Notes: a model not told the origin generated them from the letters alone. A stretch of DNA of 64,000 nt from Calditrichota bacterium (GCA_018644935.1 JABGPL010000004.1:13741-77740), one strand, 5' to 3'; numbered from the stretch's first letter, positions 12,403-22,600 are shown. Numbers and translations: made by a program.

Positions 12403-12789
12403 CTAGCCTATCAACTCTTTAACTTTTTCCAGCACAGCATCACGATCAATAGGTTTTTCAAAATATCCCGCTGGTGGACTGACCTGCTTTCTCGTTTCAA
12501 TAAATTTCTTAAAATCGCTGCGGTATCCTGTAATCATGATTACAGGGATTTCATTTGTCGTCGGATCATCATGTAGATTACGATACATCCTCACTCCCGA
12601 TTCCTCCGGCATCAATATGTCAAGGGTTATTAAATCGGGATGGTTGGCTTTTGCCTTTTCATATCCTTTTTTACCGTCCGTTGCGGAGACAACATTGTAT
12701 CCATTTGTTGTAAAAAATGTAACCAGATAAGATACTACATCCGGCTCGTCCTCAACTACGAGGATTGTTTTTAATGATTTTTCTTCCAT
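12403..12789 (-). CDS. Single-domain response regulator (CheY-like receiver)
   Basis: ILVVEDEPDV ... DLITLDILMP ... PVIMITG ... FEKP. Confidence 0.9.
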   Translation of the reverse strand: MEEKSLKTILVVEDEPDVVSYLVTFFTTNGYNVVSATDGKKGYEKAKANHPDLITLDILMPEESGVRMYRNLHDDPTTNEIPVIMITGYRSDFKKFIETRKQVSPPAGYFEKPIDRDAVLEKVKELIG

Positions 12790-12802
12790 TATATCTCCTT
12801 AT

Positions 12803-13318
12803 CTACTTGTTTAGTTTACCTTTTAGAACGTCAAGTGCTCGTTGAAGGGCTTCTTTATCTGCACCCTTCATCGCCCTTGAGAGCTCGTTATGTAATTCTT
12901 TAGGTTCTGATTCTTGTGGTTCTAATGGTTCCAATCCAAGCAACTTGCGAACTGCCGAAACATAGGAATGAGGACTAACAGGCTTCTCAAGGTAGACACC
13001 AGGACCAGACATCGTCATCTCGTCAAAGTCTGCTTTGCCCAGTTCATCACGGGCATGCCCTGTTACTGTCAATACTGGTATTTTCGAGAGAGATTTGTCT
13101 TTCTGCAACTCTCGATAACATTTTACTCCTGAATGTTTTGGCATAACCAGATCTAACGATATCAGATCCGGAAGAATACGCCTTGCCGTTTCAAGACCCT
13201 CATTTCCATCTGAGGCTGTTTCAACAATGAAACCAGCATTTTCAAGGGCAGTTCGTAAATAACTCCGAATGTCAGATTCGTCATCAACAACCAGTATTCG
13301 TTTTTTTTCTTCAGTCAT
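12803..13318 (-). CDS. Response regulator receiver protein with a short helical C-terminal extension
   Basis: ILVVDDESDI ... DLISLDLVMP ... PVLTVTG ... LEKP. Confidence 0.9.
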   Translation of the reverse strand: MTEEKKRILVVDDESDIRSYLRTALENAGFIVETASDGNEGLETARRILPDLISLDLVMPKHSGVKCYRELQKDKSLSKIPVLTVTGHARDELGKADFDEMTMSGPGVYLEKPVSPHSYVSAVRKLLGLEPLEPQESEPKELHNELSRAMKGADKEALQRALDVLKGKLNK

Positions 13319-13333
13319 TGTTAATTCTCCAGA

Positions 13334-15151
13334 TCAATCTTCTTTATTTCTTGTGAGTGAATTTCCTGCCAGAGTCTCCAGTCGATCACGAGGTAGCCGG
13401 ATGCGGAATATCGAGCCCTCATCGGGACTGGACTCAACCTCTATGGTTCCACCATGTTCTTGGATAATTTTCCTTGTGGTTAATAATCCAAGACCTGTCC
13501 CTTTTCCACCTTTCGTTGTGAAAAAGGTGGTAAACACCTTTTCTTGGATTTCAGAGTCCATTCCAGAGCCGTTATCAATAGATTCAAAAATGATTTGATC
13601 TTTATCTTCATATGTCCTCAATGTAACACGACCTCCACCTTCTTCCCGCATCAGCGCTGCATCGATTCCATTGGAGATAAGATTCGTCAAACAGGTTTCC
13701 ATCCCACTGGGATCAAGAAACGCCGGCCTGATACCTTCACCAGGCTCTAAAATCAATTCCACACCTTGATTTCTGGCTGTAACTTTGTATAAATCTATTA
13801 TATCTCGGGATATATCATTCGGGTCAACGAGTTTCAATTCGGGAAGTCGACCTTTGGCGAAACTCAGGAAGTCTTTTACAAGTGTAGTTGTCTTTTCAAA
13901 ATTGCGCTGCAATATCTCCCAGCCTTCAAGAATGAGTTCCGAATTTCCCTGCTGAAGTCCCAGATTAGCCATATACATGCCACCTTCCAAACCCATCAAC
14001 ATGTTTTTAATGGTGTGCGCGAGTCCCGCAACAGTTTGACCTACTGCTCCGAGACGTTCAGCATCAAGTTTTTCCGCTTCCAGACGTTTCATATCCCGCA
14101 TATCCTGGAGGAAGGCAGCCTTCCCTAATTTCTTGCCTCTGCTTTTAAGCTCAACCGCCCTGAATCTGACGGGGATTTCTTCGTTACTTTTTGACAATAT
14201 TGATGTTGACAAAAAATCTAATGAATCCTCATTTATCAATCCGGTTCCGCCAAACTCATCTGGCAGCATTTTCAGTAGGCTTTCAACAGATGGCATTCGT
14301 CTTGCCTTCCAGTCCAGCAATTCTCTTGCTGCGGGATTCATGATCTTCGACTCACCGCCGGAATCGACTGCAATTATTCCAGTGGCAGAGTTACTTATCA
14401 AACTTTCATAAAGGTCATGTGCCTGCTTGAGTTGACCCTCTAACTCGCGAATATCAGTAATATCTGTCGCAATCTCAATCACGTGAGCAATGCCATCTTT
14501 CTCTCGTGACAATGGTGATGTTGTCACTACGTAATGTGTCTGAGTCCCATCCTGCCTTATTCCGACTTGATTTGAAACATGCTCGCTACCATCACTGAAT
14601 GTCTCAACAGCTGGACAACTCGGGCAAATCGTTTTCCGTTTTTTGTAAACTTCAAAGCAATGCCGGTTCTGTACATCCTCACCAAATGTTCGCCGGAATT
14701 TTTCATTGGCGCGTATGATGCGAAAGTCATTATCAATTACTGTTATGTAACATGGAACGCGATCAAACAGAAGGTCGTATTCCCGTTGCCAACGGCGGGT
14801 TTCAGTTAGATCGGTGGTCATCTCCATGACATATTTGATCTGCCCGTCGTTATCATACAAAGGAGCAAGATGTGCTACATAGTGACGTGTAATTCCATGA
14901 CGGTCAATTCCAACTCCGTCTACAACTCGAACTTTTCCATCCCGGAATGTATCTAAAGCCTGACAATGTGAGCAAGGTTTATATACACCCTTGTATATTT
15001 CATAGCAGTGTCTGCCTTTCCAGTCGCCAAAGTAATCTTCAAAATTATTATTGGCGGTCATGACGTTAAAATCCCGATCAATTACTGCAAGATTGAAGGG
15101 CATTTGTTCGAATAACTCGCGACCGAAAAATTTCTCCATTTGCTCAGTCAT
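13334..15151 (-). CDS. Multi-PAS sensor histidine kinase (two Cys-motif PAS domains, one further PAS, HisKA, HATPase_c)
   Basis: The ORF track gives 13334..15205. The likely start MTEQMEKFF at 15151 overlaps the upstream stop by 8 nt. H-box GLAHTIKNML. ATPase boxes NLISNGIDA, DNGSGM and GKGTGLGL. The C-x10-C-x2-C motif occurs twice. Confidence 0.85.
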   Translation of the reverse strand: MTEQMEKFFGRELFEQMPFNLAVIDRDFNVMTANNNFEDYFGDWKGRHCYEIYKGVYKPCSHCQALDTFRDGKVRVVDGVGIDRHGITRHYVAHLAPLYDNDGQIKYVMEMTTDLTETRRWQREYDLLFDRVPCYITVIDNDFRIIRANEKFRRTFGEDVQNRHCFEVYKKRKTICPSCPAVETFSDGSEHVSNQVGIRQDGTQTHYVVTTSPLSREKDGIAHVIEIATDITDIRELEGQLKQAHDLYESLISNSATGIIAVDSGGESKIMNPAARELLDWKARRMPSVESLLKMLPDEFGGTGLINEDSLDFLSTSILSKSNEEIPVRFRAVELKSRGKKLGKAAFLQDMRDMKRLEAEKLDAERLGAVGQTVAGLAHTIKNMLMGLEGGMYMANLGLQQGNSELILEGWEILQRNFEKTTTLVKDFLSFAKGRLPELKLVDPNDISRDIIDLYKVTARNQGVELILEPGEGIRPAFLDPSGMETCLTNLISNGIDAALMREEGGGRVTLRTYEDKDQIIFESIDNGSGMDSEIQEKVFTTFFTTKGGKGTGLGLLTTRKIIQEHGGTIEVESSPDEGSIFRIRLPRDRLETLAGNSLTRNKED

Positions 15152-17009
15152 TGCACTTACTGCGGCTGAGGGGAGGCAACACCATTCTTTTACCAACCAA
15201 ATCACTTTTACTCTTTATCAGAACATCTGCATCAACAAGATCGCGTTGTCCCTCATGGCATGTTTCGCATCGAGAAAGAACAGGCTTCTCTTTCTCTACA
15301 GCCACTTGCACGTGACAATCAATACACACCATATGCATTGCTTCAGCATAACTGTTTGCCTCGTATGTTTCGATCTTAATTAATGAGCCCTGTGGGATTA
15401 AATTTTTGTGACAATAATCGCATTTTTTTGCTGAGTCGATATCTCGGATGGATGCTTTATCATGACATTCCACACAGGCAAGTTTGCCTCCATTTGGAGA
15501 TGAATGCCAATCGTGCTTAAAGGCATCGCTCGGAAGATACATATCATTATGACATTGACTACATGCGGTATTTTTATCCCTTGGTTGATTCATGTGGTGG
15601 CATTTGCTGCATGATTTGTCTTCACCATTTCGCCTGATATGTTCTTTGTGGGCAAAGGCGGTCCCAAAACCATCCCGGTTACCGTCTATCCAAAGTGTGT
15701 CGCCACCCCGAGCTTGATGCACAGGGGTTGGGTCCACACCTCTGCTCTCTGCAGGTTCCCACGAGATAAACGCAAAGGCAAATGCTGCGGCAATAATGAA
15801 CCCGAACGAATACTTTGTTCTGGCGGAAATTCCCGGTGTACCAAGCCATGTACCATCAACGGAGTGGAAATGAGGCAGTTGGGTTGGCGAAGCATCTGGA
15901 TCAGTCGGCCGGGTTTCCCAGATATTAAACCTCTCAATCATATATAAAAAAACTAAGGAAGCTCCGGCAATTACAGCAGCGGTAATAGCAATCTCTGTCC
16001 AAGCGGGAAGATATACGGTCTCGCCACGATTTATATGTACAAGCCCACCGACGTTAATCCGGTTAAGAACAATTCCCGTCACACCAGTAATTGCCACAGT
16101 CATTAAACCTGCGGCTTTTGTCCTGACATATCTGAACGACAACATCACCGTCGGGATCACAGCAACCATAGCAAGCTCAACCCAGAACATTTTGACCTGC
16201 CACTGTCCAGATCCTAATTGATCTAACTGACCCCGGATCAATAAATCACTTACTCGAATAACTAAATATGTCATGAACACCCATCTTGCTGCTGATCCTA
16301 TTTTCTCAAGAAGATCAACTTCTGGTTTGCGGCGATATAACCATGCTGTGAAGAGACTCTCAAATGTCACCATCATGAGTCCCAACCCGATAGCAGAGAT
16401 GAAAAAGATCACCGGTAGTATAGGTGTATACCAGAGGGGATGGACGTTGTATGGCATTATCAGAAACAGCGATCCCAGAGATGATTGATGCAGCGTTGAA
16501 AGTGCTATTCCGGCAATAACCAAAGGCAATCTGAGTTTGATGAGAACTTTACGTATCTTTGATAGAAAGCTGAACTCCTCTGCAGGAACAGGAAAAAATT
16601 CCATCAACAACACAGTCAGATACAACATCACACACCAACCGACTTCAAACAGTGGAGAATGAGGATTCCAGAATACAATCATGTGCCAGATATTCCAGGG
16701 CAATCCCAGATCAAACAATAATCCGAATGCCACAGCAATGTAACCAAGAAAGGCAGTAAGAACTGCGGGGCGGACGATTGAATGGAACTTTTCCAGTTTG
16801 AAGATATATACCGTAGCAGTCAGTACGAATCCTCCTGCAGCCAATGCCACCCCGCTCATTACGTCAAATCCAATCCATATCCCCCACGGAGTATTATCCG
16901 AAAGGTTCGTCGTTGATCCAAGTCCGAGCAGAAAACGGGCTACTCCAACGGCAGCTCCAACACCGATAATCATCCAGAGAATCATTTTGAAATTACGGAC
17001 TCTATTCAT
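15144..17009 (-). CDS. NrfD/DsrP/HmcC-like polytopic membrane protein fused to a C-terminal hexahaem cytochrome c domain
   Basis: About 420 aa of hydrophobic helices carry the NrfD-like N-terminus (GLGSTTNLSDNTPWGIWIGFDV). Six CXXCH motifs follow: CSKCH, CSQCH, CVECH, CDYCH, CIDCH, CETCH. The probable start MNRVRNFK at 17009 overlaps the upstream stop (17002) by 8 nt. Confidence 0.8.
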   Translation of the reverse strand: MNRVRNFKMILWMIIGVGAAVGVARFLLGLGSTTNLSDNTPWGIWIGFDVMSGVALAAGGFVLTATVYIFKLEKFHSIVRPAVLTAFLGYIAVAFGLLFDLGLPWNIWHMIVFWNPHSPLFEVGWCVMLYLTVLLMEFFPVPAEEFSFLSKIRKVLIKLRLPLVIAGIALSTLHQSSLGSLFLIMPYNVHPLWYTPILPVIFFISAIGLGLMMVTFESLFTAWLYRRKPEVDLLEKIGSAARWVFMTYLVIRVSDLLIRGQLDQLGSGQWQVKMFWVELAMVAVIPTVMLSFRYVRTKAAGLMTVAITGVTGIVLNRINVGGLVHINRGETVYLPAWTEIAITAAVIAGASLVFLYMIERFNIWETRPTDPDASPTQLPHFHSVDGTWLGTPGISARTKYSFGFIIAAAFAFAFISWEPAESRGVDPTPVHQARGGDTLWIDGNRDGFGTAFAHKEHIRRNGEDKSCSKCHHMNQPRDKNTACSQCHNDMYLPSDAFKHDWHSSPNGGKLACVECHDKASIRDIDSAKKCDYCHKNLIPQGSLIKIETYEANSYAEAMHMVCIDCHVQVAVEKEKPVLSRCETCHEGQRDLVDADVLIKSKSDLVGKRMVLPPLSRSKCND

Positions 17010-17769
17010 TATCGGTACCCTCCTGATCATTCTTCCTGCGTTGATTTTCCATGCGACGACCAATAACCCAACTTACACCTGCCATAACAGATCCCATTCC
17101 GACAAAGGCAAATGGAACGGCTTTCATTGCCGTTGATGTCCTTTCCGGAAGAGGTTTATCGCCCAGATGTTGCCCATAGGATAGGCAAGACAGATCGGTG
17201 TCTGATATGTATAGAACTTGTGAACCTCCAATTTCATGTTCACCCCAAATCCGGTCGATGTATTTATTCGGATTTCCTTTAATCCTTCTGCGAGCTTCTG
17301 CAAGCAGCTCATCCCTGTCACCAAATATTGTAGCCTGCGTTGGACATGTTTCTGTACAGGCTGGTTCTTCACCTTTGGCAACATGTTCAGCACAGAGAAT
17401 ACACTTTCGCACATAAGGAATTTGCTGATCCCAATCATAGCGGGGAATCCCATAGGGACATGCCATCATACAATAGCGACATCCCATGCATTTATCTCCG
17501 TCATATACGACAGCACCATCTTTGTTCTTCCGTAAAGCTCCGACAGGACACGCTGAAACACAGGCCGGTTCCAGACAATGCCGACACTGCTTGCGGATAT
17601 ATTTCTTTTCCGGTTTTTCTACTATTGAAGTCCAATTTCTAGCGGATAAGCCATCATCAGAATTCCATCGTCTTGGGACGGCATTTTCCAGATCATGACG
17701 CTTCTTGCAGGCAACCACACATTCGCGGCATCCCACACATTTTGTTGTATCAGTTAATATTGCTTTCAT
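17002..17769 (-). CDS. Four-cluster [4Fe-4S] ferredoxin subunit (NrfC/DsrO/HmcB-like) with a C-terminal TM helix
   Basis: CVGCRECVVAC, CRHCLEPACVSACP, CMGCRYCMMACP and CILCAEHVAKGEEPACTETCP. The C-terminal hydrophobic segment is AVPFAFVGMGSVMAGVSWVIG. No twin-arginine leader is visible. Confidence 0.85.
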   Translation of the reverse strand: MKAILTDTTKCVGCRECVVACKKRHDLENAVPRRWNSDDGLSARNWTSIVEKPEKKYIRKQCRHCLEPACVSACPVGALRKNKDGAVVYDGDKCMGCRYCMMACPYGIPRYDWDQQIPYVRKCILCAEHVAKGEEPACTETCPTQATIFGDRDELLAEARRRIKGNPNKYIDRIWGEHEIGGSQVLYISDTDLSCLSYGQHLGDKPLPERTSTAMKAVPFAFVGMGSVMAGVSWVIGRRMENQRRKNDQEGTDNE

Positions 17770-18539
17770 TAAACACTCACCTCTTCTTTCTCAGGTGTCA
17801 AATCTTCGTAAACTAAACGTGGTTTTTCCACCCATGTCGGTCGATTTTTCAGACCAAGTGTTTCGATAACCCTGCCGCCAGCACCTTTAGGGAATTTCCA
17901 ACCAATTGCAGTGACAAGTTGTGAGAATGGCATCAGGACGCAATGCGCAATTTTTGTGAATGGTATCATGACCATAATCAAATTTGCAGAATACACGTGA
18001 ATCAACATGAGCAATAGATAAGCATTAGGACTAATTGATCCATTACTGCAGATATATCCAGTCAGGAAAGGTATAATCAGCAGGATTGGCCATAAATAGT
18101 CCTGCTTTCTGCTGATAGCACGAGCGGGTTGATAAAACAGGCGCATCAGAAATAGCAGAATGCTGCAAATGATTACCGTCAGTGTTAAATTATCCGCAAA
18201 CAATTTCGGAATAGCAGAAACGGCAAATCCAGTCACATTCTTCCAAAGGAGAAGGTGTGCTGCCAGAAAAAGGGGAACAATAATCAGTCCAATATGAAAA
18301 ATCAATGATATCAGACTATATACAGGCCGTTTATTAAATAGTCGTTTTAGCGGAAAGAGCCATGAAATAGTTTTTCCAATAAGGTCTTTCCAGGGTATGA
18401 TTTTATCCTCATTACGCCTGAGTGCTTCTATCATGCCTATGATTGTCAGTAGAAAAATCCTTGTCAATCCAAGCAACATCAAAGCAAGACAAAGCCGAAA
18501 CAAAGGTCCCTGTCCAAATCCAATCCATGTCTCCAGCAT
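17769..18539 (-). CDS. NarI/DsrM/HmcE-like membrane cytochrome b subunit
   Basis: About six TM helices, with conserved His pairs in helices (SLIFHIGLIIVPLFLAAH; MLIHVYS...FTKIAH), as in the nitrate-reductase gamma family. Confidence 0.7.
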   Translation of the reverse strand: MLETWIGFGQGPLFRLCLALMLLGLTRIFLLTIIGMIEALRRNEDKIIPWKDLIGKTISWLFPLKRLFNKRPVYSLISLIFHIGLIIVPLFLAAHLLLWKNVTGFAVSAIPKLFADNLTLTVIICSILLFLMRLFYQPARAISRKQDYLWPILLIIPFLTGYICSNGSISPNAYLLLMLIHVYSANLIMVMIPFTKIAHCVLMPFSQLVTAIGWKFPKGAGGRVIETLGLKNRPTWVEKPRLVYEDLTPEKEEVSV

Positions 18540-18558: not shown

Positions 18559-20010
18559 TCAGGTTAATGAATGGTGTATTTCTTTTTCATCTTCGACATT
18601 CTCAAAGATGATGGCTTGGTACAATAGATCATGCAGCCCGACAATTTCGCAATCGACGTTGTTGTCTTCCATCAATTCCTTAAGTTGTTTTTTACAGTTC
18701 GCACAGGGCGCGACACAATACTTTGCTCCCGTTGCGCGAATCTGTTCGGCTTTGGCTCGACCGCCGATTGTTGTTCGATAGGGACGAATTTCATCAATTG
18801 AAACTGTTCCACCACCTCCACCGCAACAAATATTATCACGTCCGCTTGGTGTCATCTCAACATAGTCCTGACAAAATGCTTTGAGCAGCTCGCGTGGTTG
18901 ATCCACTATCCAACCTGAACGAGCGAAATTACATGGATCGTGATAGGTAACTTTTTCCTTGATAACATTCGGTTTGATCTTCAAGCGACCTTCTTTCCAA
19001 GCTTTCCATGAATACTCTAATATGTTAACTACAGGTAGTGCTTCTTTTCCACCACAATAGGTTGGATAGAAATACTTCGCACTGCGGGAAGCATGGCCGC
19101 ATTCACCGATAAGGATAGTCTTAATATTCAGGCGTTTAGTCTCTGCCTCAATTTTATGCAGTACCTCTTCAAGTATGTGATCGCTGTAAAAGAGGCCATA
19201 ATTAATGCCATCGAAATATCCGGTACCGATCGTCCAACTGTCACCCGTTGCTTTGAACACGGCAGCGTTACCCATCAGTGTTTCTGCCTCCATTAGGAAA
19301 TCTGAAACGGCTGGTAGAAATAGATATTCCGCACCGTCCTGATCGATGGGGAAGGGGATATTTATTCCCTTTTCTTCCTCCATATCCTCTGTCAGAAACT
19401 CCAATGTATCTAAAAGCGCAGGAACCGGTATTGCTGATGTATTGCCTGACTTCCCGATCAATTGCTCGCGTGTACTTACTACGAGTGCCCGGGGCGTGAT
19501 TCCAAGCTCAGACAGTATGTACCTTCCCAGATGAGTTATAATGGCATGATCAATTCCCATCGGGCATTCAATGCTACAACGTTTGCATGCGGTACAATTG
19601 TAAAATGACTCCGCCATCTCCTGAATTTGTTCATTCTGTAGTCCGGGATCTCCGAATACTCGACCTCTCAGCATTCCAGAAATGGTAAAGTGTCGTCGAT
19701 AAACCTTTAGCAGAAGTTCGGAACGAAAACATGGGATGTCCTGCTCGTCTCCGGTTGCAAGATATATCTGACAATTGCTTGTGCAGCGAGAGCACTTTGC
19801 ACTGATCCGCACATAATGATCGAGAACTAATCGATAATTTGTATGTTTCAGAATAGCAGCAAATGCTTCAAGAAATCTCTGTGGACGATTTTCAAGAGCA
19901 AAATCTTCAACATGATATCTTACAGACAATTGCTGTTTTTCGATTACATTTTCTTTCTTGGGAGTTTTAAAAGCTCTTTCCCGTTCTTCTTTGTTAATCA
20001 AGAGATTCAT
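18559..20010 (-). CDS. HdrD/DsrK/HmcF-like Fe-S oxidoreductase with CCG domains
   Basis: Ferredoxin motifs CSRCTSNC and CTACKRCSIECP. CCG-domain signatures ECGHASRS, HDPCNFAR, CCGGGGG and APCANCKKQL. Confidence 0.85.
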   Translation of the reverse strand: MNLLINKEERERAFKTPKKENVIEKQQLSVRYHVEDFALENRPQRFLEAFAAILKHTNYRLVLDHYVRISAKCSRCTSNCQIYLATGDEQDIPCFRSELLLKVYRRHFTISGMLRGRVFGDPGLQNEQIQEMAESFYNCTACKRCSIECPMGIDHAIITHLGRYILSELGITPRALVVSTREQLIGKSGNTSAIPVPALLDTLEFLTEDMEEEKGINIPFPIDQDGAEYLFLPAVSDFLMEAETLMGNAAVFKATGDSWTIGTGYFDGINYGLFYSDHILEEVLHKIEAETKRLNIKTILIGECGHASRSAKYFYPTYCGGKEALPVVNILEYSWKAWKEGRLKIKPNVIKEKVTYHDPCNFARSGWIVDQPRELLKAFCQDYVEMTPSGRDNICCGGGGGTVSIDEIRPYRTTIGGRAKAEQIRATGAKYCVAPCANCKKQLKELMEDNNVDCEIVGLHDLLYQAIIFENVEDEKEIHHSLT

Positions 20011-20012
20011 AA

Positions 20013-20834
20013 CTAATTCTCTACCTGGTCAATGTTGATTTTATCATGGTTTTTTATCCTGCCCTTCAAGGGAGGTAATTGTTCTTTTTTGGTCGGGTGT
20101 ACTGCATTAGGATCAGTTGAGGTCGGATCGAGAAGCTCGACTTCGTAATCCTGACATTTTTTGATCATGTTTGAAGTTGAGTTGTGAACAAAAACCCTTG
20201 CATTGTATTCCCTGCTCGTAACATGACTAAATTCCTGAATTTCGGATTCGACCCTATAACTGTGTGCTCCACAACAAATGGCAACTCGAACATTTTTACC
20301 GCAGACAGGGCACTGAATTGTTGCATTGAGATCAATTGGGTAAGAATCAGATTCATTAGCTCGATCTAAGCTCCAACCGTGATTTGTAAATAGGTTTACA
20401 GTCCAGTCAACAAGATCCGAGTTATGGGGCTGAAGTTGGATGTCTCCGTTGTTATTATAAGAGGATTTAATTTGCATTTTACCTGCGAGATATTCATATA
20501 GGGAATCATTTGCAGAACCGGTTGCATTCTCAACCACATGGCACCCTGATGCCTGTAATAGTTGGCGTTCCTGCCCTTCTATCCCATTACAAATTAAAAC
20601 ATTTATGCCTGAATTTTTCAAAAGACGAATTCGTGCCAAACCTCCAGTTTCATCAACATTTAATTCACTGAATGTTATTTTATTGCGAGGTCCTATCTTC
20701 CATATCCGAAACAGTCTTGTGGCAGAGAAGCATGGTGCAACTTCATCTCCAAAGCAGGTGATCGCGATTTTTATTTCCTCACTCAGATTCATATCTGAAT
20801 TAAGCTCATCTTTAATGTGCTTCTCAGTATTCAA
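20013..20834 (-). CDS. First gene of the operon: NifX-like N-terminal domain fused to an uncharacterised Cys-containing C-terminal domain
   Basis: The N-terminus is IKIAITCFGDEVAPCFSATRLFRIWKI...INVLICNGIEGQERQLLQASGCHVV (Nitro_FeMo-Co-like). I do not recognise the C-terminal 140 aa (CPVCGKNVRVAICCGAH). Confidence 0.55.
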   Translation of the reverse strand: MNTEKHIKDELNSDMNLSEEIKIAITCFGDEVAPCFSATRLFRIWKIGPRNKITFSELNVDETGGLARIRLLKNSGINVLICNGIEGQERQLLQASGCHVVENATGSANDSLYEYLAGKMQIKSSYNNNGDIQLQPHNSDLVDWTVNLFTNHGWSLDRANESDSYPIDLNATIQCPVCGKNVRVAICCGAHSYRVESEIQEFSHVTSREYNARVFVHNSTSNMIKKCQDYEVELLDPTSTDPNAVHPTKKEQLPPLKGRIKNHDKINIDQVEN

Positions 20835-21178: not shown

Positions 21179-22600
21179 CTATTGTACATCATATTTGCGC
21201 ATTTTTCTCCATAATGTAGACCGGTTCATACCAAGCATTTCCGCAGCTTTTGTTTTATTTCCACCGGATTGTTTAAGTGCCTGGAGAATTAATGCTCCTT
21301 CATCAACCACTGTTCTATCTAAAAATGAGCTCTGTAAAGAATATTTGTTTTGATCACTCATCTTGTCCTGAGATTGCAGTTCCACCGGCAGGTGTTCTAC
21401 TCCGAGGGTTCTGCCATGACAGATAGCATAGCCATATTCGATGATGTTCTCCAATTCACGGATGTTGCCTGGATATTCATGGTTTATTAATATTGACATT
21501 ACAACAGGAGTAACGCCTACAATATTTTTGCCCTTGCGCGCATTGAAAAGTCTAATGAAGTGATCCACTAAATAGGGGATATCCACTCGGCGATCTTTGA
21601 GTGGTGGTAGATCGAATCGGATGACAGCCAGACGGAAATACAAGTCATTCCTGAAATTGCCTTGCTCGACTAATTCCTTCAGATTGCGATTTGTTGCAGC
21701 AACTATCCGGATATTTGCTTTCACAGTTTTAACACTGCCAAGAGGCTCGTATTCTTTCTGCTGAACCAGCCTGAGAAGCTTAACCTGAGTTGAAAGAGGG
21801 AGCTCGCCAATTTCATCTAAGAAAACTGTTCCGTTCTCTGCAATGGTGAGTTTACCGGGTTTATCCTTCTTGGCATCTGTAAAAGCACCCTTTGTATAGC
21901 CGAACATCTCTGACTCAAAGAGTTGTGGAGGGAGGGCCCCGCAATTGATTACAACATAAGGTTCTTTCTTACGGGGAGATAGATTGTGAATCGCTTGAGC
22001 AAACAGCTCTTTTCCTGAACCTGATGGTCCCTGGATCAAGACGCTACTTTCACTCTCTGCAACATCAGGAAGAATTGATAATATCTTTAGAAGTAAGGGA
22101 CTTTTTGTAATGATATCTTCAAATGAGTAGTTTTTTTCAAGTTGTTTGCGGAGGTCTTCAATTGCACTTAGATCGCGGAACGTTTCAACTGCTCCGAGTA
22201 CATTACCGTCATCATCGCGCAGAACAGCCGTCGAAATTGATATCGGAACACGACGACCGTTGCTATCGAGAATATGTACAGGTATGTCGATCGCTTCCTG
22301 CCCGGTTTGCATACTCTTCTCAAGCAAGCAGCCAGTTTCACAAATGTCAGAATGAAATACTTCATAACATTTTTTTCCGATTGCCTGTTTTGAAGGCGTA
22401 CCGGTGATTCTCTCTGCTGCTGGATTAAAGGATGTTATGCACCTTTGGTCATCGATGGTGAACACACCATCTGCAATTGAACTTAAAATGGTTTTGAAAA
22501 AACGATTTTCCTGGTCTGAGCCATTCATACTTTTGTACTTTTCCAAGTTGGAGGATCGGCTGACGGTTTCAATAAAAGTTAGGTTTAGATTCTCTATCAT
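21179..22600 (-). CDS. Sigma-54-dependent transcriptional activator (PAS, AAA+, Fis-type HTH; no receiver domain)
   Basis: Walker A GPSGSGKELFA, the GAFTDA loop (GAFTGA-type), ESEMFGY, and the C-terminal HTH NKTKAAEMLGMNRSTLWRKMRKY. The N-terminal PAS carries CYEVFHSDICETGC. Confidence 0.9.
   Translation of the reverse strand: MIENLNLTFIETVSRSSNLEKYKSMNGSDQENRFFKTILSSIADGVFTIDDQRCITSFNPAAERITGTPSKQAIGKKCYEVFHSDICETGCLLEKSMQTGQEAIDIPVHILDSNGRRVPISISTAVLRDDDGNVLGAVETFRDLSAIEDLRKQLEKNYSFEDIITKSPLLLKILSILPDVAESESSVLIQGPSGSGKELFAQAIHNLSPRKKEPYVVINCGALPPQLFESEMFGYTKGAFTDAKKDKPGKLTIAENGTVFLDEIGELPLSTQVKLLRLVQQKEYEPLGSVKTVKANIRIVAATNRNLKELVEQGNFRNDLYFRLAVIRFDLPPLKDRRVDIPYLVDHFIRLFNARKGKNIVGVTPVVMSILINHEYPGNIRELENIIEYGYAICHGRTLGVEHLPVELQSQDKMSDQNKYSLQSSFLDRTVVDEGALILQALKQSGGNKTKAAEMLGMNRSTLWRKMRKYDVQ

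Follow-up and report, generated by a model that had tools for sequence, protein, structure and literature searches.

Fusion of an NrfD-type membrane module to a hexahaem class III cytochrome c within an Hmc/Dsr-like gene cassette of a Calditrichota bacterium

A stretch of 64,000 nucleotides from a Calditrichota bacterium (GCA_018644935.1 JABGPL010000004.1:13741-77740), referred to here as the window and numbered from its first letter, contains a gene in which an NrfD-type membrane module is followed by a hexahaem class III cytochrome c. The single open reading frame (ORF) occupies 15144..17063 on the minus strand and encodes 639 amino acids (aa) if counted from the first TTG. The true start is probably the ATG at 17009, which yields a protein of 621 aa, since the Shine-Dalgarno sequence AGGAGGG lies 8 nt upstream and the gene so defined shares 8 nt, at this ATG, with the end of the Fe-S gene before it. 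The gene and its parts are as follows.

15144..17009, minus strand: whole fusion gene, 621 aa plus stop (ATG at 17009, TGA at 15146-15144)
15936..17009, minus strand: NrfD core of HmcC/HybB type, residues 1-358, with 10 predicted transmembrane (TM) helices and both termini cytoplasmic (Pfam, NCBIfam, hydropathy, AlphaFold2 and Foldseek)
15807..15935, minus strand: predicted cytoplasmic linker, residues 359-401 (43 aa), conserved and ending in the basic n-region R397/K399
15744..15806, minus strand: 11th helix or retained signal-peptide-like segment, residues 402-422 (h-region 402-415; c-region 416-422; position -3 is A420, position -1 is S422)
15240..15743, minus strand: predicted periplasmic class III (HmcA/NhcA/c3-type) hexahaem domain, residues 423-590, with six CXXCH motifs and distal His 454, 457, 472, 499, 502 and 559
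15147..15239, minus strand: C-terminal tail, residues 591-621, poorly conserved, with a weak V-(V/I)-L-P motif

Both parts of the protein were recognised by family models. Pfam NrfD (PF03916) matched residues 34-318 with 64 bits against a cut-off of 25.8 and Cytochrom_CIII (PF02085) matched residues 496-585 with 42 bits against a cut-off of 22.9, while the class III cytochrome c models of Pfam together covered residues 463-585. The best NCBIfam models for the NrfD part were HmcC (313 bits) and HybB (269 bits), not DsrP. Assignment to the NrfD/PsrC family was also indicated by a membrane part of 10 predicted TM helices (8-10 are expected of the family) with the ActC/PsrC fold, and by the adjoining gene for a 4x[4Fe-4S] partner of NrfC/PsrB type (Fer4_11, 17002-17769). 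The six CXXCH motifs start at residues 467, 483, 512, 530, 562 and 581, and a motif scan of the 621-aa protein revealed no CXXCH, the redox-cofactor motif looked for, in the membrane part, before residue 467. Six CXXCH motifs were present in 18 of 18 locus-encoded homologues checked. In an alignment of 46 homologues (46-81% identity), 12 of 12 motif Cys, 6 of 6 motif His and five further His were invariant, as were P368 and P379 of the linker (consensus RPxDPxADPxKLPEFD..TWLGxP). Invariant residues of the membrane part included D49, H109, E122, Y130 and H174, which are conserved candidates for a putative quinone site on the positive (P) side of the membrane. These findings bear out the initial annotation, which had described one continuous ORF with NrfD-type helices followed by exactly these six motifs and had noted that the NrfD subunit and the multihaem cytochrome are separate polypeptides in the characterised Hmc, Dsr, Nhc, Qrc, Psr and Nrf systems.

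Because such fusions are rare among characterised systems, an artificial joining of adjacent nrfD and cytochrome genes, through loss of a stop codon or a frameshift introduced in sequencing or assembly, might be suspected, but nothing beyond this expectation speaks for it. The cluster formed at 90% identity contained three distinct 621-aa sequences that differed by one or two residues and came from 8 contigs of four sources (NCBI, Logan, ENA and JGI), together with a fourth, contig-truncated member that reads through the junction. The closest other relative (81% identity, ten contigs) aligned without gaps to the window over 1863 nt, and differences at first, second and third codon positions numbered 46, 10 and 177 in the core, 12, 4 and 28 in the linker and 4, 3 and 22 in the stretch that precedes the haems. 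Moreover, independent projects yielded the same architecture in more than 120 clusters when proteins were grouped at 90% identity and in about 50 when they were grouped at 50%, and the linker itself holds invariant residues. Given the agreement between independent assemblies and the third-position bias across the junction, a frameshift or assembly join is excluded, with a residual likelihood that is negligible. What lies at this locus is one true gene fusion of an NrfD-type membrane module and a hexahaem class III cytochrome c.

Hydropathy analysis distinguished 10 core helices, a hydrophilic stretch of 43 residues (359-401), an 11th hydrophobic segment (402-420) and about 200 soluble residues. 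Basic residues numbered about 19 in the predicted cytoplasmic loops as opposed to about 4 in the periplasmic ones, a bias that places the N-terminus inside and the haem domain outside. The haem domain is thus predicted to face the periplasm, as the initial annotation had supposed. The further supposition that, as a result of the fusion, the membrane domain itself ends on the outside was not upheld, for the 10-helix core ends in the cytoplasm, in agreement with both the positive-inside count and the known topology of 10-helix NrfD proteins (ActC, HybB, DsrP and QrcD), which have both termini on the negative (N) side as opposed to the P-side termini of 8-helix PsrC (PMC8076601); the membrane is crossed by helix 11. 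A model generated with AlphaFold2 (AF2) from 46 homologues, with a predicted local distance difference test (pLDDT) score of 68, reproduced these helices, including one at 392-414. The best Foldseek match of the modelled membrane part was ActC (6btm_C, E 1e-8), and the top seven matches were all ActC or ActF of alternative complex III (E 1e-8 to 4e-4), with nothing else convincing. An inverted, cytoplasm-facing orientation of the NrfD module was also considered and was ruled out by the strongly N-in positive-inside bias; SoeABC is an example of a module with that orientation.

Helix 11 is built like a Sec signal peptide. Among the 46 homologues, a basic n-region (R397 in 41/46, K/R399 in 26/46) precedes an h-region of constant length (14 residues, 402-415, no indels), followed by helix breakers at S/P416, G/P417 and P419. 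Position -3 (residue 420) is occupied by Ala (19), Leu (14), Val (8), Ile (4) or Thr (1), which accounts for 46 of 46 sequences, position -2 is variable, position -1 (residue 422) is Ser (37), Gly (4) or Thr (1) in 42 of 46, and position +1 is never Pro. This pattern raises the possibility that the fusion is a polyprotein from which signal peptidase I, cutting after Ser422, would free a soluble hexahaem cytochrome (about 200 aa) into the periplasm, leaving an 11-helix HmcC-like protein. Against this, Leu and Ile at -3 are poor signal peptidase substrates, the -1 rule is broken in 4 of 46 sequences and the conserved SRG motif could be structural. The 14-residue h-region is short for a membrane anchor, which speaks for cleavage, whereas AF2 shows residues 392-414 as an unbroken 23-residue helix with fair confidence, which speaks against it. 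There are precedents in HmcA and NhcA, which occur as soluble proteins of the periplasm after cleavage of their signals, and in FbcH of Bradyrhizobium, a cytochrome b-c1 precursor that is cleaved at an internal signal peptide. Signal-peptide-like segments are also kept in other fusion sub-families, for example KKMSPTLLALFALGTLLMFQANPPAAQSAE in the 12-haem protein P0193, although, if cleavage were constant, it would be hard to see why the two parts have stayed fused in relatives down to 33% identity. On balance, cleavage is regarded here as a serious possibility, held tentatively and at somewhat less than even weight. If it does occur, the fusion would serve co-translational targeting and 1:1 synthesis of the two products and not a permanent tether. 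The claim of the initial annotation that the fusion hard-wires the haem wire to the quinone or proton module therefore went too far, since helix 11 is signal-peptide-like and the mature proteins may be separate.

One extra hydrophobic segment was noted ahead of the haems in every fusion variant examined, irrespective of whether these carried as few as 2 or as many as 14 haems. In an unfused relative (L038:5162-7582), genes for an Fe-S protein without a Tat (twin-arginine translocation) signal and a 400-aa NrfD protein are followed by a separate gene for a four-haem cytochrome (118 aa, N-terminal signal anchor), an arrangement that plausibly represents the pre-fusion gene order. Given the extra helix in all variants and the unfused layout of this relative, read-through fusion of neighbouring genes with retention of the cytochrome signal is the simplest history, and helix 11 would most simply be the retained signal peptide or anchor of a once-separate cytochrome gene.

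Six CXXCH motifs and six further His (454, 457, 472, 499, 502 and 559) were invariant in 15 diverse homologues, and because the number of additional His matches that of the motifs, six bis-His haems are possible. A search of the PDB with the whole protein as a single sequence returned marginal c3 matches alone (E 0.07), for which reason a profile of the haem domain was required. The best match of this profile was the 16-haem HmcA structure 1z1n (E 1.4e-18), and further matches were to Hmc of D. vulgaris (2e84), nine-haem NhcA (1duw) and tetrahaem c3. As judged from these profile and Pfam matches, the haem domain is a module of the HmcA/c3 class and belongs to the class III cytochromes c.

The fusion is the last structural gene of a four-gene cassette, designated K-M-O-P/c for its DsrK-like, HmcE-like, HmcB-like and fusion products. 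The accompanying genes in the window are as follows.

17002..17769, minus strand: HmcB/HybA-like 4x[4Fe-4S] subunit, 255 aa, with no N-terminal signal and with a C-terminal TM helix followed by an RR-rich tail (HmcB 247, HybA 211 bits)
17769..18539, minus strand: HmcE/TmcC/DsrM-like membrane cytochrome b (NarI-type), 256 aa (HmcE 112, TmcC 110 bits)
18559..20010, minus strand: DsrK/HmcF-like cytoplasmic CCG-domain Fe-S protein, 483 aa (DsrK 304, HmcF 198 bits)
20013..20834, minus strand: NifX-fold (Nitro_FeMo-Co) protein, first gene of the operon
21179..22600, minus strand: PAS/sigma-54 activator upstream of the operon, conserved in relatives
12403..15151, minus strand: PAS histidine kinase and two response regulators downstream of the fusion, conserved there in many phyla

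The K-M-O-P/c order was retained in 33 of 33 non-myxobacterial loci with flanking sequence and persisted in members with only 36-40% identity, and the DsrK-like protein was 60-80% identical across phyla. The sigma-54 activator, the kinase and the two response regulators were often conserved beside the cassette. The NifX-fold gene was kept in loci of the Fibrobacteres-Chlorobi-Bacteroidetes (FCB) type and went undetected in acidobacterial loci. For the histidine kinase, the most likely start by far is the ATG at 15151 (MTEQMEKFF...), which overlaps the TGA of the fusion by 8 nt (aATGACTGA), and the GTG at 15205 given in the ORF list is probably not its start; the overlap indicates that the sensors are translationally coupled to the structural genes.

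A Tat or Sec signal was not found on the Fe-S subunit of any relative (L001-L030, L044-L046); the protein starts M..AILTD.TKCIGC and there is no room upstream for such a signal. The C-terminal TM helix and a conserved RR(M) tail are nevertheless kept, and these predict a periplasmic Fe-S domain. The fusion itself was considered as a Tat carrier for this subunit and was rejected, as both its N-terminus (MNRVRNFK) and its linker (SARTKYS) lack RR.

Comparison with characterised complexes placed the cassette closest to Hmc and DsrMKJOP. With HmcABCDEF of Desulfovibrio (Nitratidesulfovibrio) vulgaris it shares four module types, among them the class III multihaem cytochrome, the tail-anchored 4x[4Fe-4S] subunit (HmcB) and the 10-helix NrfD protein (HmcC), and HmcB, HmcC and HmcE were the best NCBIfam models for the corresponding cassette subunits. 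Differences from Hmc were the fusion of six haems to the NrfD subunit as opposed to a separate sixteen-haem HmcA, the lack of HmcD (the cassette genes overlap or lie 2-19 nt apart, leaving no room for this gene), the order F/K-E-B-C/A instead of A-B-C-D-E-F, the lack of a signal peptide on the Fe-S subunit, a cytoplasmic subunit nearer to DsrK than to HmcF, and occurrence outside the Desulfobacterota. Neither the equivalog scores nor the separate HmcA and HmcD that define Hmc were found, though the haem domain is homologous to HmcA. The similarity to DsrMKJOP, a menaquinol:DsrC-trisulfide oxidoreductase (PMC10861901), extends to the K (CCG), M (haem b), O (Fe-S) and P (NrfD) subunits and a periplasmic c-type cytochrome, and to co-occurrence of the cassette with dsrAB, dsrC and dsrMKJOP, which it adjoins in Acidobacteriota. 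Unlike DsrMKJOP, the cassette is a paralogue, as a bona fide DsrK (731 bits) and DsrP are encoded elsewhere in the genome; its P subunit is of HmcC/HybB and not DsrP type, its O subunit has no Tat signal, and the place of trihaem DsrJ is taken by the c3-type hexahaem extension of P, no DsrJ-like gene being present in the cassette. No subunit reached an equivalog cut-off (HmcC 313/550, HmcB 247/420, HmcE 112/275, HmcF 198/750, DsrK 304/400 and HybB 269/450 bits). These scores and gene contents make the cassette a compact relative of both Hmc and DsrMKJOP, as yet uncharacterised, and a member of neither.

Other complexes resemble parts of the cassette. NhcABCD, OhcABC and QrcABCD likewise combine a periplasmic multihaem cytochrome, an NrfC-type Fe-S protein and a 10-helix NrfD-type quinone module but lack a cytoplasmic K/M half and have separate cytochromes, and Qrc contains in addition the cofactor-less QrcB. 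Alternative complex III, the ActC and ActF subunits of which have the closest solved fold for the membrane part (10 TM helices, both termini on the N-side), also includes a penta- or hexahaem subunit and an Fe-S subunit. The resemblance is limited by an identity of 14-17%, a separate ActA with its own helical anchor, other partners and a function as quinol:cytochrome c or oxidase complex. One-ORF precedents for a quinone-reactive membrane module joined to a periplasmic c-type cytochrome include FbcH of Bradyrhizobium. CbcL of Geobacter sulfurreducens is another such ORF and consists of a dihaem cytochrome b and a nine-haem c domain (bioRxiv 10.1101/2022.08.31.506072). In both of these proteins the membrane module is a haem-b protein and not a cofactor-less NrfD, and there is no sequence relationship to the fusion.

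The distribution of the fusion was evident from a homologue search that covered 5.8 billion proteins. The best 120 matches, which are those described here, were all about 615 aa in length, at least 57% identical and carried both Pfam domains. Loci in species-representative genomes numbered 35 and were distributed among Acidobacteriota (Bryobacterales, Sulfopaludibacter), Calditrichota, Zixibacteria, Ignavibacteria/Melioribacteraceae, an FCB-group metagenome-assembled genome (MAG) and Myxococcales, so that the fusion is present in at least five phyla; within the phylum of the window, about half of 41 genomes contained a full-length orthologue. Among 107 representatives with a complete NrfD domain (from the 150 best at 50% identity), 53 carried C-terminal CXXCH motifs, and the number of these was six in 31 of the 53 and otherwise ranged from 2 to 14. 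In a tree of the NrfD domain the window protein fell in a clade with 98% support in the Shimodaira-Hasegawa-like approximate likelihood ratio test, in which 28 of 33 rows were six-haem fusions and the few haem-less rows were short and truncated-looking. Other fusions were scattered among unfused HybB-like proteins, which points to repeated fusion or fission.

An association of the cassette with dissimilatory sulfur metabolism was evident from the genomes in which it occurs. Thus, dsrA scored above the curated cut-off in 29 of 35 fusion genomes and was split or truncated in 4 more, whereas it scored above this cut-off in 0 of 14 control genomes; at least part of dsrA was found in 33 of 33 genomes checked that carry the full cassette. 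On the complete chromosome of one of the Bryobacteraceae, dsrK-J-O-P and dsrN are immediately followed by the cassette, which travels with dsr genes in at least four of the five fusion phyla. The genome of the window contains dsrA (537 bits), five DsrC/TusE-like genes and a gene for TatC, together with a total of five DsrK-like and five NrfD-family genes, among them, on another contig, the bona fide DsrK gene (731 bits) and a neighbouring gene for an NrfD protein (DsrP). Published data for a sulfate-reducing acidobacterium, Sulfopaludibacter MAG CO124, include the cassette as genes 670-673 on the contig that also carries locus L006, and the fusion is listed there with both Pfam domains (PMC10564751 supplement). 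All four genes of this cassette were on in four anoxic, sulfate-reducing samples in which dsr and apr were on and were nearly silent in the other, oxic samples, with log2 fold changes of -4.1 to -5.9 (PMC10564751).

Taken together, the architecture and predicted topology of the fusion, its conservation, the conserved gene order around it, the presence of dsrA in most of the genomes that carry it and the anoxic transcription seen in one relative suggest that the fusion is part of an Hmc/Dsr-like K-M-O-P/c complex that is additional to canonical DsrMKJOP and serves Dsr-based sulfur metabolism, a reading to which we assign a probability of roughly 65%. The direction of electron flow, the use of quinone and the DsrC substrate are extrapolated from characterised relatives. 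DsrMK oxidises menaquinol and reduces DsrC-trisulfide at the non-cubane cluster of DsrK (PMC10861901), whereas QrcCD reduces menaquinone at a P-side site with cytoplasmic protons by means of residues shared with HybB and HmcC (PMC6303296; PMC13059093); QrcD, HybB and HmcC form one clade for which this reaction has been proposed (PMC6303296). By analogy, the haem domain would accept electrons from periplasmic carriers or donate electrons to them, and the four Fe-S clusters of the O subunit would relay electrons to menaquinone at the P-side site of the NrfD domain, which would act as the quinone/proton module. The DsrM/HmcE-like protein would be a dihaem b subunit and the DsrK-like protein a cytoplasmic thiol/trisulfide reductase, and this M/K half may link the quinone pool, or the haems directly, to the reduction of a cytoplasmic DsrC-type trisulfide or disulfide. 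The two halves together could form a transmembrane route or redox loop for Dsr-based sulfur metabolism.

Several observations weigh against this assignment to Dsr metabolism. The most serious concerns the Fe-S subunit, which would have to be periplasmic for the proposed electron path; since it has no signal and no partner with a Tat signal is encoded in the operon, its presence there is unexplained. Nor does the reading assign a partner to the strongly conserved cytoplasmic linker (359-401). The function of the cassette is also an extrapolation because none of its subunits reaches the equivalog cut-off of any characterised complex, and the haem domain was modelled by AF2 with low confidence (pLDDT about 30-65), although AF2 without haems cannot model such a domain reliably. 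The cassette of the window's genome has no dsr genes beside it and comes with its own sigma-54 and two-component regulators, so a conditional or non-Dsr role could apply. Finally, the two Myxococcales genomes were the only ones among the 35 fusion genomes that lacked dsrA, and a DsrK-like gene was not found in either of their cassettes by tblastn, which indicates that the P/c-O module can work in other contexts.

These Myxococcales loci also favour a Dsr-independent quinol:cytochrome c oxidoreductase, in which the Fe-S protein and the fusion would form a quinol dehydrogenase of NrfCD type that supplies electrons to acceptors in the periplasm or outside the cell, such as metals or partner cells, and K and M would be accessory. 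Modules of NrfCD and multihaem cytochromes have been widely proposed as quinol:acceptor reductases, for example in Melioribacter, MBNT15 and Methanoperedens (PMC3534657, PMC9386147, PMC7327174), CbcL of Geobacter joins a quinol oxidase and nine haems in one polypeptide (bioRxiv 10.1101/2022.08.31.506072), and a 12-haem fusion was found with an Fe-S partner alone, with no K or M. Accessory status of K and M is difficult to reconcile with a gene order kept down to 36% identity in the six-haem clade and with the conservation of the DsrK-like protein noted above, and independence from Dsr with the occurrence of at least part of dsrA in every full-cassette genome checked and the position of the Bryobacteraceae cassette beside dsr genes. 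This alternative is therefore considered quite improbable.

A role as Hydrogenase-2 anchor, in which a HybB protein passes electrons of H2 from a periplasmic [NiFe] hydrogenase to quinone, is implied by the names that databases give to the family, which include 'Ni/Fe-hydrogenase cytochrome b subunit', 'HybB-like' and 'hydB'; other entries are named 'NrfD/PsrC family'. The HybB model of NCBIfam does score 269 bits and some unfused relatives adjoin hypA, but this score is below the cut-off of 450. Furthermore, a [NiFe] hydrogenase large subunit (NiFeSe_Hases) was not found in the window's genome, which is 89% complete, hydrogenase genes were present in none of the cassettes, and the authors of PMC10564751 found no accessory hydrogenase proteins for their second hydB entry. 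The hydrogenase reading is effectively refuted at this locus and, in the absence of a [NiFe] large subunit from the window's genome, the hydrogenase names are wrong here and represent a systematic misannotation.

A stronger form of the Dsr reading may also be entertained, albeit as an unlikely one. In sulfite and sulfate reducers outside the Desulfobacterota, the cassette would then be the principal gate dedicated to electron passage between DsrC and the periplasm or quinone pool, with a quinone-reducing half like Qrc/HybB and a quinol-oxidising half like DsrMK in one self-contained redox loop, and with delivery of the cytochrome as an internal-signal polyprotein and export of the Tat-less Fe-S subunit by an undescribed route as possible further features. 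Electron transfer and energy conservation are largely unknown in sulfate and sulfite reducers outside the Desulfobacterota, such as Acidobacteriota of peat and Ignavibacteria, Zixibacteria and Calditrichota of sediments. Recognition of the fusion corrects annotations and provides a specific candidate for the missing link between the periplasm and DsrC, as well as a test case for the wiring of NrfD to haems, for cytochrome delivery by an internal signal and for export of an Fe-S subunit without a Tat signal.

The fusion is not unusual among known sequences, being common across at least five phyla, and the domain pair is already in print, in the supplement of PMC10564751, but was neither discussed there nor recognised as a fusion or as part of an Hmc-like complex. 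A paper that describes an NrfD-multihaem fusion as such was not found in full-text literature searches, though an earlier description in Duarte et al. 2021 (BBA 1862:148416) is possible, and the words 'fused' and 'fusion' are absent from the NrfD review PMC8076601.

Related arrangements were noted at other loci. A Logan contig (SRR1313734, locus L037) encodes a 1091-aa NrfD fusion with 12 CXXCH motifs, an Fe-S partner with a Tat signal (MKLNRRKFLK...), a 90-aa ORF, a divergent PAS/sigma-54 activator and a Spy/CpxP-like (LTXXQ) protein. No DsrMK-like genes were found at this locus, which is a different, two-subunit use of the NrfD-cytochrome fusion. In the relative with 81% identity the DsrK-like gene is split into two ORFs (291 and 163 aa) in one assembly (L047:3646-5109) and is intact (487 aa) in a second (L048:3646-5109), so that the split is probably a frameshift or assembly error. 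The genome of the window contains, in addition, a DsrK-like paralogue (337 bits, C132:38205-39503) flanked by three DsrC/TusE-like genes (G000:C132:37404-40723). Besides the orthologue, a divergent NrfD-cytochrome fusion is encoded in several genomes of the window's phylum by open frames of about 650-690 aa, with 43-48% identity in the N-terminal part and 31-32% in the C-terminal part (G037:C445, G039:C203, G049:C54, G062:C1:639854-641773 and G073:C1:123434-125353), and these constitute a paralogous fused family.

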